A DNA stretch of 64,000 bases from an uncultured Clostridia bacterium (GCA_947589575.1 CANQBM010000008.1:918-64917); one strand, 5' to 3'. Shown: positions 58,369 to 63,365, counted from the first letter of the stretch. The notes: a model not told the origin generated them from the letters alone. Numbers and translations are program-made.

Positions 58369-58457
58369 GCAGAGGTATCGAAGCGGTCATAACGAGGCGG
58401 TCTTGAAAACCGTTTGTCCGAAAGGGCGCGTGGGTTCGAATCCCACCCTCTGCGCCA
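58369..58457 (+). tRNA. tRNA-Ser(TGA)
   Basis: 89 nt with long variable arm; anticodon loop CT TGA AA; encoded CCA. Confidence 0.95.
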
Positions 58458-58490
58458 AAAAAAAGAAGTCGTTTTTACGACTTCTTTTTT
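58457..58490. terminator. Bidirectional terminator (tRNA-Ser / acyltransferase)
   Basis: AAAAAAAAGAAGTCGT-TTTT-ACGACTTCTTTTTT. Confidence 0.85.
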
Positions 58491-58497
58491 ATTTTTA

Positions 58498-59643
58498 TTA
58501 TTTAGAAAACAGCTTTTTATCGACCCATACAATCAAATCGTTGTAATGCAAAATCTTTTTTAAAAATTCAACAACTATTGATATTGCTACCGAAACAATT
58601 AAAAGTATAACCGGAATAAGAATTGCATTCTTAACCGAATAAAGCAAATCGTTAAGATACACATATCTGATAAAGGTATGAATCAAAAAGATATTTAATG
58701 AGTGGCTTCCGATAAACATAAGCGCTTTATTGACAATGGGAATCCTTTTTAAGTATCTGTTTGCAAAAAGAATAACAATCACGGGTGAAATGCAGTAGTT
58801 GAATTCCCAAATCTTTTCCCTGCCGAACTTATGTGTAATAACAACAATCAGGAAAAAGGCAAGCATATAAACAAAAAACAATATTATATCCGAAAGGATT
58901 TTGCTCTTTTTAAAAAGCGTAAATTTATTAACCCTTGAAAAAACGTCATACTTTGCAAAAGCCATACCAAGAATATATGCCAGGAAAAAAGAAAATATGT
59001 TTTTACTCCCCGGAAAACCCATACCCATAATTCTCGGAAAAAGCATAAAAGCAGCACCGATAACAAAGAAACTAAAGCGTTCACCGAGTCGGCATATAAG
59101 AGGGAAAAATACTGTCATTATAACGACCGCGCTCATATACCACCAAGTGCCTACAAGAGAGGGTGTTCCGACAATATGGGAAATTCCGAGAAAATCAATT
59201 ACCGCCCATAACCAGCTCCCCTCAATCTTTGTCTGCGATGTAACATAACAGATAAGCGGGCGTTGGTCTATCGCATACGTTATGATAAACACAAGAATAT
59301 ATACAAACCAGAAACCGCCTAGAACTTTAAGCAGTCTTTCACCCGTCCAGTTAAAAACAGACCTGTTGTCAAGTCTTATTTGACTGAATGATTTATAAAA
59401 CCCATATGCTGTAATAAATACAAACATACCCACGCACAACTTAAAAGAGTCGCAAACCATCAATGGCCAGTGGTATGATTCAAAAGGGAAAAAATTAAAT
59501 ACGTGCCTTTTAATCTCTGTTACTGAAATAGAATGGTGAAACATTAACAGCACAATCGCAACACCTTTTACAAGCATAGAATCATACTTTGAAAATGAGC
59601 TTGACCGAGCTGCTCTTTCAACATCTGCTTTTCTGATAATCAT
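58498..59643 (-). CDS. Acyltransferase-3 (OafA-like) integral membrane O-acyltransferase
   Basis: KGVAIVLLMFHH, VGMFVFITAYG, WWYMSA, IGSHSLNIFLIH; about 10 TM segments; own TTGACA-17-TATAAT promoter upstream. Confidence 0.85.
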   Translation of the reverse strand: MIIRKADVERAARSSSFSKYDSMLVKGVAIVLLMFHHSISVTEIKRHVFNFFPFESYHWPLMVCDSFKLCVGMFVFITAYGFYKSFSQIRLDNRSVFNWTGERLLKVLGGFWFVYILVFIITYAIDQRPLICYVTSQTKIEGSWLWAVIDFLGISHIVGTPSLVGTWWYMSAVVIMTVFFPLICRLGERFSFFVIGAAFMLFPRIMGMGFPGSKNIFSFFLAYILGMAFAKYDVFSRVNKFTLFKKSKILSDIILFFVYMLAFFLIVVITHKFGREKIWEFNYCISPVIVILFANRYLKRIPIVNKALMFIGSHSLNIFLIHTFIRYVYLNDLLYSVKNAILIPVILLIVSVAISIVVEFLKKILHYNDLIVWVDKKLFSK

Positions 59644-59760
59644 TTTGATTTCCTCAATTAAATTTTGATGATTTCATATTTTAATAATTGAGTTTATTAT
59701 ATTTTAAAATGGATAATATGTCAATATTTCGATTTTACGTAGTATTCTATAAACGAATGA

Positions 59761-61584
59761 TCAACCTGCATAATTGAGCTTTTCCCTATTACTTCCGTCA
59801 AATCTTAAGCGATAATTAGGACCTCCCTGAATATCGAGATTAAGTTTGCAATAAATCCATTCACCTGCAATGTTTATAGAAGCTACTTTTTCATCTGTCA
59901 GCTTTTTCTTGTTGCTTCCGTCAAGCTTTACGCTGTACATTCTGTTGCTATCGTCTGTATTTGAATAGTAAATCGTGTCACCTGCAACATTTAAATCAAA
60001 AGCAGAATCATCATTGACTTTGTGATTATCAGTTCCATCGGTTTTTACAGCATATATTTTGTCGTCATCATTTTTGTTCAAATAATAAATCCAGTTATCG
60101 AGAACATTAATATCATACGTTTCGCAATCAATAATCTTGTGACTGTTGCTCCCGTCTGTTTTCATGGCATATATCTTGTAACCGTCATTTTTATTGTTAT
60201 AATAAATCAAATCATCAACAACAGCTATAATATAATTATCAAAAATCTTTTGCTTATTACTTCCGTCAGTTTTCATAACAAACGATTTGTAGTTTTCATC
60301 ACAATACCATGTTGAATAATAAATATTTTCACCCACAACGCTCATAGAAATGGGTTCATCATCACTTATCTTATGATTATTAGCTCCATCTGTCATAACA
60401 GCGTATATACCACCATAACCATTATAATACACATAATTGTCAACAACGTTAATAAAAGGCATAAGCAGATTGCAATTTTTGCTCAGCTTTTTCCTTTCGG
60501 TTCCGTCAGTCTTTATGCGGTATAAATTATAAGTTTCTCCCAACGAATCGCAATAATAAATATAATCGCCCTGTAAAGCCGCATAACCACAATTGTCAAG
60601 ATTTCCTGATGTGTTTCCGGCAATATCTACCACTTTATTTTCCGGTTCTGTTTCAGTTGTACTTTCCGTAACAGTTGAGTTTACCATAGTTTCGGGCGCA
60701 AGATTATTTTGTTCAAGGTTTAATCGTGTGCCGGCAAACACACCGCCCGACACAAGAACTGCTGCGCTCAAAACTCCGGCAATCACCTTAGACGCCGTTG
60801 TTTTGAACAGCTTTTTTGAAAGTGAAATTTTGGCATTAGATAAAGCATTATCAGTAACACCGAAAGTCGTTTCAGCAGGGCTGTTATAACTGCGCGTAAT
60901 AGAGGCTGCACCGTTCACAATAGTTGAAAAAGACGGATGCAGCATAGTATTTGGAATATGCTTTGAAAGAATAGTGCCAAGAAGAGGAATTGCAGCCGCA
61001 GAATGAAGCTGAATATTGTCCCTTTTTTCAATTGCTTCTATTTCATCACGAATTTTCTTTCGTGCATAATTCAGACGGCTTTTAACCGTCCCTTCACTGC
61101 ATTCAAGAAAATCAGCAATCTCCGAAACCGATTTTTCATCATAATAATAGAGAATAATACATACCCTCTGCTCGTCAGGCAGGCGGTCAATAATTTCATT
61201 TATTATTTTATGTATTTCTGAATTATCAACTATCTCCTGCGCGTTTTCCGCTTTATTATCTTCAATATCAAATTCAAAACCATCCGCTTTATCATATTGA
61301 GAGAAAAGAACAGGCTTTGACTTTTTCAGATAATTTTTACATTTGTTAGCCGCAATGCTTTTAAGCCAGCTTTCAAAAACAAAAGCATTATTAAGTGTAT
61401 TCAAACTTTTAAATGCGGCTACAAATGTTTCCTGAGTAATATCACCTGCATCCTCTCTGTTTTTGAGAAGTTTAAAGCAGAGATAGTAAATTCTGCTGTA
61501 ATATTCCTCATATAAAACAGAAAAGGCTTGTGAGTCACCGCTTACAGCTTTCTGAATTAAATCGATTAGTTCTGTTTTTTCCAT
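59761..61584 (-). CDS. ECF-type sigma factor fused to a TM helix and a DUF5050-like beta-propeller
   Basis: Region 2 (DAGDITQETF, WLKSIAANKCKNYLKK); region 4 (LPDEQR..YYYDEKSVSEIA...GTVKSRLNYARKK); TM VIAGVLSAAVLVSGGVFA; seven IYY...Y..KTDG repeats; RBS AAGAGG supports start 61584. Confidence 0.85.
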   Translation of the reverse strand: MEKTELIDLIQKAVSGDSQAFSVLYEEYYSRIYYLCFKLLKNREDAGDITQETFVAAFKSLNTLNNAFVFESWLKSIAANKCKNYLKKSKPVLFSQYDKADGFEFDIEDNKAENAQEIVDNSEIHKIINEIIDRLPDEQRVCIILYYYDEKSVSEIADFLECSEGTVKSRLNYARKKIRDEIEAIEKRDNIQLHSAAAIPLLGTILSKHIPNTMLHPSFSTIVNGAASITRSYNSPAETTFGVTDNALSNAKISLSKKLFKTTASKVIAGVLSAAVLVSGGVFAGTRLNLEQNNLAPETMVNSTVTESTTETEPENKVVDIAGNTSGNLDNCGYAALQGDYIYYCDSLGETYNLYRIKTDGTERKKLSKNCNLLMPFINVVDNYVYYNGYGGIYAVMTDGANNHKISDDEPISMSVVGENIYYSTWYCDENYKSFVMKTDGSNKQKIFDNYIIAVVDDLIYYNNKNDGYKIYAMKTDGSNSHKIIDCETYDINVLDNWIYYLNKNDDDKIYAVKTDGTDNHKVNDDSAFDLNVAGDTIYYSNTDDSNRMYSVKLDGSNKKKLTDEKVASINIAGEWIYCKLNLDIQGGPNYRLRFDGSNREKLNYAG

Positions 61585-61705
61585 ACTTGTCCTCTTATAC
61601 AGTATCTTATTATAATTATAACACAAATAACATTACTTGCAATAAATATAAAATTAAGACATTTTAATTTTGTTATTTAGTATAATTTTATACATCTATT
61701 ATTAT

Positions 61706-62482
61706 TTAATCTAGTAAAATAACAGCTTGTACTTCGTCTCCGTCATGCAAATATGTATAGATAGAAGCGGGTTCACCATTGACAAAAAGTTCTGCAAGCT
61801 CATATCTATAATTTAGAAAACTTGATGAACCATATGAAATTGCATCAAATAGGCAAATAGTTTTAGTATATTGTCCAACAGTTTGATTCTTCTGTTTTGC
61901 TAAAAATTGAGAGGCAGCAAAACTACTTAATCCATATACTGTTGCGGTTGTATTTTTCCATGGCACATCTGTTAAATCTATAAAGTTAAGCCCGCTGATG
62001 TCAGTAATCTTATCCGGATACAGCTCGCCTAACTTTTTTATATCATAATACAATCCCCTATCTATTTGGCAAACGCTGAAATGTGCTATGCCTGTTGTAT
62101 CACCCTGCGCCGCAGTGGTACTGCTGACACTGGATGTATTTTCCGAATTTGCAGAACTCCTGTCGCCTGATGAATCTAATTCAAATATCGCTAATAAAAC
62201 AATGCCAATTAATGCTAAAATAACTACAATGAATATTCCCATTGTACCTTTTTTAGATAATTTTCCAGGCGTTTTTTGAAATTCTATTGATTCATCGGAG
62301 CTTTCTGTTATATTAGTATCAGATTCTGCCATTTTACTGTCATTGCCGCCGGTTTCATTATTTACCAAAAAATTTTCAGACTGATTTTCCGCATCATCCG
62401 ATAAAGTTACATTCGTACCGCAGTCCGGGCAAAAAACAGTATCGTCCTCTAATTTGTTACCACATACTTCACAAAATTTCAT
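61706..62482 (-). CDS. Zinc-ribbon, single-TM membrane protein
   Basis: MKFCEVCG...FCPDCG ribbon, acidic linker, TM GIFIVVILALIGIVLLAIF, Ser/Thr linker, unknown C-terminal domain; start likely ATG 62482. Confidence 0.75.
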   Translation of the reverse strand: MKFCEVCGNKLEDDTVFCPDCGTNVTLSDDAENQSENFLVNNETGGNDSKMAESDTNITESSDESIEFQKTPGKLSKKGTMGIFIVVILALIGIVLLAIFELDSSGDRSSANSENTSSVSSTTAAQGDTTGIAHFSVCQIDRGLYYDIKKLGELYPDKITDISGLNFIDLTDVPWKNTTATVYGLSSFAASQFLAKQKNQTVGQYTKTICLFDAISYGSSSFLNYRYELAELFVNGEPASIYTYLHDGDEVQAVILLD

Positions 62483-62513
62483 ATTTCTATTGCCTTTCCG
62501 TAAATTGCTCAAC

Positions 62514-63005
62514 TCACTTTTTCATAAACAATTTTACTATAGGGTATATGATTACATAAGCTATAATTGCAAAAATAGGTATGAAAATATATGTAATAAA
62601 ATGCATTCTCCAATCCTGCAAATGAAATATTCCCATAATTATTTCATCAATACCACTTAAAAACGCCGCCCAAAAGCCTATAATACACGATATAAATCCG
62701 GCAATACCTTTGGGCAGCCACTTATTTTCTTCCTCTCGTTGCTTGTTTGCAGCTTCAGTAATTTCCCTGCAGTACGCCTCGTGTGACGGCAGAACCTCCC
62801 ACTGATCCAACGGAATCTCTCTGAAAAATGCCACAACCTTTGTCTGATTATTGATAAATTCAAGGCGCTCCTTTTCATAATTATACCGATAAAAACCGTT
62901 AGACTGCGTGTATATCGGTATTGACACCTTTGATGTGCCTCCGGTTGTAAATTTGTTTGTTTCATTTTCGTTCTGATTTAATTCATTTAATTCTGATTTT
63001 TCCAT
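62514..63005 (-). CDS. Hypothetical protein with two C-terminal TM helices
   Basis: RBS GAAAGGG before ATG; two hydrophobic segments at the C-terminus. Confidence 0.7.
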   Translation of the reverse strand: MEKSELNELNQNENETNKFTTGGTSKVSIPIYTQSNGFYRYNYEKERLEFINNQTKVVAFFREIPLDQWEVLPSHEAYCREITEAANKQREEENKWLPKGIAGFISCIIGFWAAFLSGIDEIIMGIFHLQDWRMHFITYIFIPIFAIIAYVIIYPIVKLFMKK

Positions 63006-63090
63006 AATTTTATCCCTTTCTAAATCATTTGATACTATTAAGACAACTGAATATGTAATTCGGTTTTACCAATTTACAAATTTTTATTTT

Positions 63091-63229
63091 TGCGGGCTTT
63101 CTGCTCTGCTTTTCTGTTCTGCAAACAAGTGTTATCGCGCCGGCTGCCGTCTGCTTGCACGCGAATAACGAAACAGTCCGGCGGACTGTTTCTCGCCCTC
63201 GGCGCGAGAGTTCGAGTCTCTCCTTCTGC
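63091..63229. repeat. GC-rich multi-hairpin element ending in an inverted copy of the tRNA-Ser(GCT) 3' end
   Basis: GAAACAGTCC-GGC-GGACTGTTTC hairpin (63170-63192); GTTATCGCG/CGCGAATAAC stem; 63200-63229 is the exact reverse complement of 63279-63308. Confidence 0.8.
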
Positions 63230-63242
63230 AATTTAATAACAT

Positions 63243-63275
63243 AAAAAAAGGAACAGATAAATCTGTTCCTTTTTT
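63243..63275 (-). terminator. Terminator of tRNA-Ser(GCT)
   Basis: AAAAAAAGGAACAGAT-AA-ATCTGTTCCTTTTTT. Confidence 0.88.
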
Positions 63276-63365
63276 GGCGCAGAAGGAGAGACTCGAACTC
63301 TCGCGCCGGTTGCCCGACCTACGCCCTTAGCAGGGGCGCCTCGTCACCAACTTGAGTACTTCTGC
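63275..63365 (-). tRNA. tRNA-Ser(GCT)
   Basis: 91 nt; CGCCC-CT GCT AA-GGGCG; long variable arm; encoded CCA. Confidence 0.95.

Follow-up and report, generated by a model that had tools for sequence, protein, structure and literature searches.

Folded single-stranded recombination sites are known from integrons (attC) and from CTX-phi, the attP(+) forked hairpin of which is used by XerCD; in these sites, paired inverted segments imitate a duplex. Palindromic repeats of the repetitive extragenic palindromic (REP/REPIN) and MITE (miniature transposable elements with inverted repeats) types are served by RAYT (HUH) or insertion sequence (IS) transposases, and the IS110/IS1111 elements combine a DEDD transposase with a bridge or seek RNA in which two internal loops carry half-site guides. 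Other elements cross over in the T-loop of tRNA or transfer-messenger RNA (tmRNA) genes, as in the case of mycobacteriophage Ms6, with a block of identity extending from the T-loop to the end of the gene (PMC1762012), and cis-mobilisable elements (CIMEs) are integrase-less derivatives of integrative elements (PMC5704250, PMC6323972). We describe here a non-coding element lying behind the tRNA-Ser(GCT) gene of an uncultured Clostridia bacterium, in a stretch of 64,000 nt (GCA_947589575.1, CANQBM010000008.1:918-64917), the whole of which is called the window below, with positions counted from its first nucleotide.

The element, which spans positions 63135-63229, is a worn copy of a multi-copy family of non-coding cassettes. 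The hallmark of this family, which has apparently not been described before, is an inverted repeat formed around a terminator by the gene and by a copy of part of it (R) carried in the cassette. The best overall explanation of the locus (probability of about 0.7) is a worn family cassette with an arm perfected by a templated patch, the family itself most likely being made up of cassettes that lack an integrase and take the place of a gene end.

The tRNA-Ser(GCT) locus and its inverted repeat

The features of the locus are listed below. Units of the family are read on the strand opposite the tRNA, which is the plus strand of the window.

63108-63126, plus strand: probable remnant of the R tail of an older unit, GCTTTTCTGTTCTGCAAAC
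63135-63162, plus strand: X region, with the subfamily motif ..GCACGC.., containing TCGCGCCGGCTGCC at 63135-63148
63163-63168, plus strand: 5' strand of helix P1, GAATAA, pairing with GTATCC in the sister allele (4/6) and unpaired in the window strain
63170-63192, plus strand: HP1, a 10-bp palindrome with a 3-nt loop, GAAACAGTCC-GGC-GGACTGTTTC, the marker of the family
63194-63204, plus strand: HP2, a small hairpin, CGCC-CTC-GGCG, conserved in position and structure in the family, with covarying sequence
63200-63229, plus strand: R, the sense-strand copy of the 3' part of tRNA-Ser, 30 nt long in the window
63205-63209, plus strand: templated patch CGAGA, replacing TATCCT of the sister strains (five substitutions and one deletion)
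63230-63242, plus strand: spacer from R to the terminator (10-25 nt in family units)
63243-63275, either strand: bidirectional intrinsic terminator (A-run, 15-bp stem, T-run), forming the loop of the large inverted repeat
63275-63365, minus strand: tRNA-Ser(GCT), the target or neighbour gene (ARAGORN; Rfam tRNA, 51.7 bits)
63279-63308, minus strand: inverted-repeat arm inside the tRNA (variable arm, 3' side; T-arm; acceptor, 3' strand)
63451-63423, minus strand: promoter-like site of tRNA-Ser(GCT) (promoter scan)

Positions 63200-63229 (plus strand, CGGCGCGAGAGTTCGAGTCTCTCCTTCTGC) are the reverse complement of 63279-63308 at all 30 positions, and the tRNA arm ends short of the discriminator and CCA (GCCA). 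The two arms are separated by 49 nt, with the tRNA terminator inside this gap. These features, and the perfect 10-bp hairpin with its 3-nt loop at 63170-63192, had been reported in a first-pass annotation of the window and were confirmed by sequence comparison. None of 100 dinucleotide shuffles of the window yielded a comparable inverted repeat, and no further copy of the 30-mer was found within three mismatches. The GC-rich body of the annotated element was borne out in its composition (57.6% G+C at 63091-63229, against 35% in the preceding 1.1 kb), but not in its extent, as the element homologous to the family begins at about 63135-63147 rather than at 63091. The segment 63092-63126 lies outside it and looks like older debris; the part at 63108-63126, which may be compared with TTTTCTGTTCTTTACATC immediately upstream of the same terminator in two sister species (G019 and G015), is probably what remains of an older unit. 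Debris related to the unit, with or without HP1, is also found behind the same tRNA in G028, G019 and G003, and this site has therefore been hit repeatedly.

The asymmetric flanks of HP1 (CG and CTC) place it on the plus strand, where the strand-specific pattern CG-AAACAGTCC-N3-GGACTGTTT-CTC was matched at 63169-63195. HP1 lies 84 nt from the 3' end of tRNA-Ser, convergent with it and with the terminator between them, at a distance within the range of the family. In the three-way junction typical of the family, HP1 and HP2 are present and P1 is broken, whereas the sister allele keeps P1 (four of six pairs). A direct repeat of 13/14 positions links TCGCGCCGGCTGCC (63135-63148) to TCGCGCCGGTTGCC in the tRNA (63301-63314). 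The tRNA side of this match covers the 5' strand of the T-stem and the variable arm; the first 8 nt of the converted R arm are complementary to the repeat, which overlaps the subfamily GC hairpin motif. The inverted arm is, as annotated, not that of an ordinary attachment (att) site of the attR type; the family nevertheless normally has an att-like direct repeat (L), which has been lost here, with no second copy of TGGCGCAGAAGG... found upstream.

Strain assemblies of the locus were gathered by looking up the neighbouring 163-aa protein in ENA and Logan. This protein was found in eight places, in independent assemblies, seven of which span the repeat and one of which is identical to the window over 481 nt; the repeat is therefore not an assembly artefact. 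The comparison of filled and empty alleles proposed in the first-pass annotation found no empty one, all the strain assemblies being filled.

An islet in the window (58458-63274, 4.8 kb) is an AT-rich block of four genes, encoding an acyltransferase-3, a sigma/anti-sigma-propeller fusion, a Zn-ribbon membrane protein and the 163-aa membrane protein, between the convergent genes for tRNA-Ser(TGA) and tRNA-Ser(GCT). No integrase was found inside it and no tRNA-derived direct repeat at either end; tRNA-Ser(TGA) (58369-58457) was ruled out as an attL/attR partner, as its 3' end differs. The locus has neither the flanking direct repeats nor the integrase of an integrase att site, and its tRNA copy is inverted. 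A 68-codon open reading frame (ORF) at 63025-63231 (minus strand) was dismissed, as it runs across the hairpins and is unsupported. The locus could nonetheless be seen as a one-off accident (a template switch or an assembly chimera) or as the att scar of this islet, with no family behind it: the element has almost no counterpart elsewhere in its genome, its arm was indeed shaped by a template switch, and the islet is flanked by two tRNA-Ser genes. This reading is refuted by the hundreds of homologous units in relatives, by the at least eight independent metagenome or Logan assemblies that span the locus, and by the far end of the islet, at which there is no tRNA-Ser(GCT) repeat and the 3' end of tRNA-Ser(TGA) differs; its probability is negligible. 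The units of relatives and the spanning assemblies are the reverse of the two outcomes, absence of the hairpin elsewhere and artefact, that the first-pass annotation had set against its own proposal.

The six sister-strain assemblies (L216-L221) differ from the window at eight positions in 481 nt, and six of the eight differences fall within 6 nt, where the sister strains read GGCG-TATCCT-GTTCGAG and the window and one other assembly (L222) read GGCG-CGAGA-GTTCGAG. Every changed base of the window allele agrees with the tRNA arm, which displays no difference among any of the strain assemblies aligned. In the sister allele, the arm measures 20 nt and the junction is that of the family consensus, CC-TGTTCGAG, likewise present at the tRNA-Ser(GCT) units of G071 and of the outgroup G015 (same locus); the outgroup reads the ancestral-type CC-T-TGTTCGA, the family consensus being CC-TGTTCGA. 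The TATCC of the sister allele and GAATAA (63163-63168) make up a canonical P1, with four of six pairs. Alignment and folds indicated that the patch extended the arm from 20 to 30 nt and destroyed the 3' strand of P1, and the 30-nt R of the window is the single outlier in a family in which R elsewhere measures 5-20 nt. The ancestral arm was 20 nt long and accompanied by P1, and the window lineage lengthened it by one clustered templated patch.

As the clustered change is copied from the tRNA arm, we infer that the patch arose as a template switch between the arms of the quasi-palindrome. Template switching homogenises and expands inverted repeats and inverts spacers (PMC7202029, PMC8604942, PMC8794818, PMC13100816). 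As is usual in this type of mutagenesis, a clustered multi-nucleotide change made an imperfect repeat longer and perfect; the process covers the perfection of the arm in the window strain only, and not the origin of the element or of R. The GGC loop of HP1 in the window is the inverse of the usual loops of the family, which are C-rich in about 135 of 140 units, and this inverse loop (GGC for GCC) may be a second trace of template switching, as it fits the inversion of spacers. The 3' part of R (CCTTCTGC) looks like the product of an earlier conversion, G015 and G019 reading TCTCTGTTCTTTAC at this point.

The suggestion that the arm is homogenised to its local tRNA, by recent copying or ongoing conversion, was thus upheld by a templated patch seen between strains. 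The alternative offered with it, an antisense module pairing with read-through pre-tRNA, has lost ground, since the mutation that made the arm perfect broke a helix conserved in the family. The arm's perfection is recent, templated and probably damaging to the element, and would be a mutational by-product in a decaying copy rather than a designed antisense module. The window provides a strain-resolved natural case of quasi-palindrome template switching, in which one event added 10 nt and a conserved helix was lost, and it warns against taking perfect complementarity to a tRNA as proof of antisense function.

Distribution and anatomy of the HP1 cassettes

The pattern AAACAGTCC-N3-GGACTGTTT was found in 102 of 145 genomes of the genus, with 0-46 copies per genome, and a reversed control pattern gave no match in the same 145 genomes. 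The hairpin scan suggested in the first-pass annotation was therefore productive in the genus, but the genome of the window itself has only two HP1 units (that of the window and another behind tRNA-Val on contig C15), both of them worn. A species scan, with one genome per species, provided an unbiased sample of 133 units. It recovered HP1 on at least 119 contigs, nearly all from metagenome-assembled genomes (MAGs) of Oscillospirales from the gut and rumen; the groups concerned were Eubacterium sp. CAG:251, Acutalibacteraceae, Oscillospiraceae and Ruminococcaceae. HP1 was present on eight IMG/VR contigs, and no match was obtained in the plasmid collection. An Rfam 15 search (E-value thresholds) with the window and nine family loci, which the annotation had also proposed, matched no described family and returned only tRNA, glmS and weak chance matches; in the literature searched, the palindrome appeared only in unrelated primer lists.

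Several observations concern individual members. A unit about 60-140 nt downstream of tRNA-Ser(GCT) in G003 (contig C35, L036) has the palindrome AAAGCCCC-AGT-GGGGCTTT, with the same flanks (GGGAG...CG), and counts based on the exact pattern therefore underestimate the family. In G032, the genome with 46 copies (L069-L088), many contigs end 6-50 nt from HP1, indicating that the repeats break the assembly, and two near-identical subfamilies dominate, both without a tRNA-derived R. A 5.4-kb unverified record labelled 'Bacteriophage sp.' (MT838325.1, L237) carries genes for glyA, a YebC-like protein and a D-alanyl-D-alanine carboxypeptidase-like (penicillin-binding) protein; it was rejected as an HP1-bearing phage, its gene content being that of an ordinary bacterial scaffold.

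In the unbiased sample, 46 of the 133 units (35%) have the 3' end of a tRNA or tmRNA within 134 nt, 15 isotypes and tmRNA being represented, against a chance expectation that we estimate at less than 1%. The tRNA adjacent to the unit was the best match to R, among all the tRNAs of the set, in 34 of these 46 linked units. Hairpins within about 150 nt of tRNA ends, and inverted arms matching their own neighbouring tRNA, had both been predicted at the outset. In about 60 distinct units, HP1 lies 63-127 nt from the 3' end of the tRNA or tmRNA, always in convergent orientation, and exact matches of R extend over 5-20 nt (median of about 12; window outlier apart). Cores with 90-97% identity over about 58 nt are found behind different genes, each with a target-specific R: near-identical cores are shared by units at tRNA-Arg, tRNA-Met, tRNA-Pro and tmRNA, and by units at tRNA-Val and tRNA-Thr.

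The units are about 100-200 nt long, non-coding and structured, and consist of, in order, L, X, the 5' strand of P1, HP1, HP2, the 3' strand of P1, R, the spacer, the terminator and the tRNA. L is the reverse complement of the last 20-23 nt of the tRNA; it begins with TGG, which complements CCA, extends into the T-loop and thus repeats the gene end in direct orientation. X is a variable GC-rich hairpin, HP1 has the fixed flanks CG...CTC, the spacer has 10-25 nt, and R copies, in sense orientation, the end of the variable loop, the 5' strand of the T-stem, the T-loop and part of the 3' strand of the T-stem. As a single strand, the core adopts a three-way junction composed of P1, HP1 and HP2. 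Pairing is seen at 153 of the 216 P1 positions of 54 non-redundant units, compared with 106.8 +/- 5.1 for shuffled partners (0 of 2000 shuffles attain the observed value), and one P1 position displays four Watson-Crick pair types (A-T 21, G-C 19, T-A 6, C-G 2). HP2 and P1 vary in sequence with their pairing kept; the invariance of HP1 among the units found follows from the search pattern, which fixes its sequence, and the HP1 variant of the tRNA-Ser(GCT) unit in G003 (AAAGCCCC/GGGGCTTT) is fully compensated. The covariation of P1 and HP2, together with this compensated variant, indicates that the core is selected as a folded single strand, of DNA or RNA.

If the selected strand were RNA, the unit could be a small RNA (sRNA) gene on the plus strand, sharing the terminator, or the tail of a read-through pre-tRNA on the minus strand, with the junction as an RNA scaffold. 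R may then serve as a mimic of the tRNA or as a guide, or its complement may act as an anti-tRNA segment; the role would lie in the processing, sensing or protection of tRNA, and the copies would have spread by duplication or mobility. The covariation of P1 and HP2 is compatible with this proposal, the structured 5' domain, single-stranded R and intrinsic terminator are laid out as in an sRNA gene, and R is identical to the tRNA and complementary to L. However, the promoter scan gave only the promoter of the tRNA itself and none for the plus strand, and HP1 does not covary but keeps its sequence, as is more usual in sites recognised by a protein. The variation from 0 to 46 copies between sister species, the arrays and the debris fit selfish DNA better than a housekeeping RNA, and the window strain tolerates the loss of P1. 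We consider an sRNA unlikely.

In at least 17 units that have unrelated flanks upstream, the CCA end is the exact start of L, the other end of which falls at T-loop positions 55-58. It is missing from about 20 of 67 tRNA-linked units, and is thus frequent but not universal. Many L copies are followed by a terminator of their own, and tandem units with different terminators are present at L049 and on contig C15 of the genome of the window. The second HP1 unit of this genome (C15:24440-24700; L224/L250) lies on that contig behind tRNA-Val(TAC), upstream of the gene gap; it has a full L (TGGTGGGAACAACAGGGCTCG), a distinct terminator of its own and, further out, the remnant of an older R and spacer. 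The distal tRNA-Val end reads CCCACCA in this genome and CCCATCA in the sister strain(s) (CCA to CAT), and the proximal gene is intact.

L might alternatively be a complementary DNA of the 3' end of the mature tRNA, reverse-transcribed from CCA to the modified T-loop, template-switched to the core RNA and inserted downstream. Its extent in many independent units, from the mature CCA end to T-loop positions 55-58, is that expected of such a copy, and the sequences upstream of L are sometimes not terminators. An identity block ending at the gene end is, however, also expected of att sites in tRNA genes (PMC1762012), simple downstream insertion would not give a separate terminator between the units of an array, and R is left unaccounted for. 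As reverse transcriptases are, in addition, found in 4/9 high-copy and 6/12 zero-copy genomes, we regard retro-insertion as improbable.

Other units lie where a protein gene has its 3' end (a rubrerythrin-like gene; the gyrA/gyrB region) or in the interiors of REP-like palindromes. The units at protein-gene ends indicate that the targets are not restricted to tRNAs. These units (L093/L033, L089, L108, L121 and L191; L114, L124 and L189), some of them in tandem, duplicate the last 12 or so codons and the stop codon of the rubrerythrin-like gene, and the end of the gene beside gyrA/gyrB, and contain, in inverted orientation, a short copy of the sequence immediately internal to the junction. In some MAGs, the units (L109, L110, L112, L137, L171, L196, L197 and L237) have a third hairpin and end in TTCACTC instead of R; units with this ending lie inside or beside the REP-like palindromes GTAGGGTGCGATG-CCCA-CATCGCACCCTAC, and their two flanks are sometimes complementary. 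At L104, L212 and L208-L215, HP1 units are present at each of two convergent genes, for tRNA-Pro(TGG) and tRNA-Pro(CGG). Prophages with tyrosine or serine recombinases are integrated into the last 12 or so nucleotides of tRNA-Pro(CGG), directly beside units, and this explains the IMG/VR matches.

Proposed gene-end replacement and candidate enzymes

In the mechanism that we propose, the cassette would enter the T-loop of the gene by site-specific recombination, bringing with it a replacement gene end and a terminator, and the old end would be pushed outward to become L. Successive integrations would then generate tandem arrays with one terminator per unit. R would pair with the copy of the gene end, the folded single strand mimicking the target duplex, and the chemistry would be carried out by an enzyme supplied in trans, possibly a universal one of the host. 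T-loop integration with replacement of the gene end is favoured because of the boundaries of L, the arrays separated by terminators and the decay of the distal copies.

The 934 ORFs of at least 90 aa encoded within 2.5 kb of HP1 were clustered, and only housekeeping genes and the integrases of the tRNA-Pro prophages recurred. No GIY-YIG motif was found in ORFs of 50-160 aa within 700 nt of HP1, and small GIY-YIG genes, present in only 2 of the 145 genus genomes, did not track copy number. Tyrosine recombinases (Phage_integrase) are universal, with 3-12 per genome, and none stands out; G032, with its 46 units, has three. Recombinases of the Xer-like kind, of about 330 aa, were present in all the genomes. 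The other families were found at similar frequencies in the genomes with many HP1 copies and in those with none: RVT_1 in 4/9 high-copy and 6/12 zero-copy genomes, Y1_Tnp (HUH, IS200/IS605) in 3/9 and 2/12, and IS110 (PF01548) in 2/9 (G119 and G001) and 1/12, the last two families being absent from G032. The first-pass annotation had proposed a non-autonomous, tRNA-targeting element and a search for a co-occurring tyrosine or HUH transposase. The multi-copy nature and tRNA linkage of the element stand, but no specific enzyme of either type emerged, and the HUH (Y1) transposase does not co-occur (3/9 versus 2/12 genomes). REP elements carry a conserved 5' tetranucleotide of the GTAG type, and the flank 5' of the HP1 palindrome, CTACG, has the opposite polarity to this rule. 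An IS91-type target rule (GTTC) was rejected on inspection: it fits the T-loop junctions, but fails at the protein-gene targets, and would not produce a direct repeat.

The units combine an unchanging scaffold with a variable, target-matching segment, and the copy in the window lies about 50 nt from its match. Such a unit might encode a guide RNA used by an RNA-guided enzyme (the bridge or seek RNA of IS110, the omega RNA of TnpB, or the homing CRISPR RNA of a CRISPR-associated transposon), with R as the guide to the tRNA gene. However, G032 and most of the high-copy genomes lack IS110 and Y1 (IS200/IS605) transposases (no search for TnpB was made), no protein family recurs beside HP1, and Rfam gave no match to omega-RNA, HEARO or any other family. 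The geometry also differs, L and R covering the same target segment on opposite strands rather than adjacent half-sites. A guide RNA is therefore highly improbable.

Several points weigh against this overall explanation of the window copy and of the family. No recombinase, HUH, reverse transcriptase, IS110 or small GIY-YIG enzyme tracks copy number. No filled/empty allele pair was found, both units of the genome of the window being fixed in all strain assemblies; at the tRNA-Val unit, no empty site was found, the synteny in relatives not being simple and the strain assemblies being all filled. The ancestral terminator and T-loop integration are consequently not proven. Neither L nor any direct repeat can be recognised in the window copy, which therefore does not reveal how it arrived. 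The polarity of the patch is based on the family consensus and one outgroup. Spacer and terminator are wholly different between units with cores of about 90% identity, a divergence that fits a local origin as well as it does fast decay. Finally, the replacement model sends retargeting first through a chimeric tRNA.

A more far-reaching version of the replacement model, which we put forward as speculation and consider rather unlikely, would make the HP1 cassettes a minimal programmable integrating DNA, in which a constant scaffold recruits a universal host enzyme (e.g. of the Xer type), exchangeable L and R segments mimic the target hairpin, and the arms are written and retargeted by templated copying from the neighbouring gene. 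If this were true, a single core would be able to establish itself behind any tRNA, any tmRNA or any conserved end of a gene.

If the replacement reading of the family is correct, nearly every tRNA gene in many gut and rumen Clostridia can host a parasite of about 150 nt that preserves the gene, supplies a terminator and keeps the mirror image of its target, without an enzyme of its own. Integration into tRNA genes would thereby reach down to sizes known only from the attC sites of integrons and from REP elements, and one would have to ask by which enzyme, of the host or of a phage, the invariant palindrome is read. For annotation, the units explain many 'duplicated tRNA ends', tandem terminators and MAG contig breaks behind tRNAs.

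Comparison with described systems

The IS110 bridge RNA and the omega RNA of TnpB/IscB share with the HP1 units a constant scaffold joined to a target-matching segment, but no IS110 or Y1 gene co-occurs with the units, Rfam gave no match, and the arrangement of L and R does not fit. Elements of the REP/REPIN and MITE types are similarly short, non-coding, multi-copy and hairpin-forming, lie between genes beside terminators, and vary in copy number between species. The HP1 units differ from them in that Y1 HUH transposases do not co-occur, terminal inverted repeats of fixed sequence are lacking, the unit has ends derived from the target, and the units have a fixed orientation and a strong linkage to tRNA 3' ends.

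With Ms6-type elements and CIMEs, the family has in common a direct repeat from the T-loop to CCA, an intact gene, tandem accretion, tmRNA as a target and the lack of an internal integrase. Unlike them, the HP1 units measure only 100-200 nt and have no cargo, and one folded core is found behind at least 15 isotypes and some protein genes. They also carry an additional inverted copy of the target (R), no integrase-bearing parent was found, and the window copy is without the direct repeat.

The attC sites are defined by R''/L''...L'/R' boxes (RYYYAAC...GTTRRRY) and the IntI integrase; inspection by eye revealed no GTTRRRY cores in the units, and no search for IntI was made. The target of the HP1 units is the T-loop of a tRNA rather than attI or dif, HP1 is fixed in sequence, the units lack the context of an integron integrase, and a single-stranded intermediate is only proposed for them. 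What the HP1 units share with attC and the CTX-phi site is the precedence of structure over sequence, the pairing of inverted segments, small size, non-autonomy, organisation in arrays and, as proposed here for HP1, an enzyme acting in trans.

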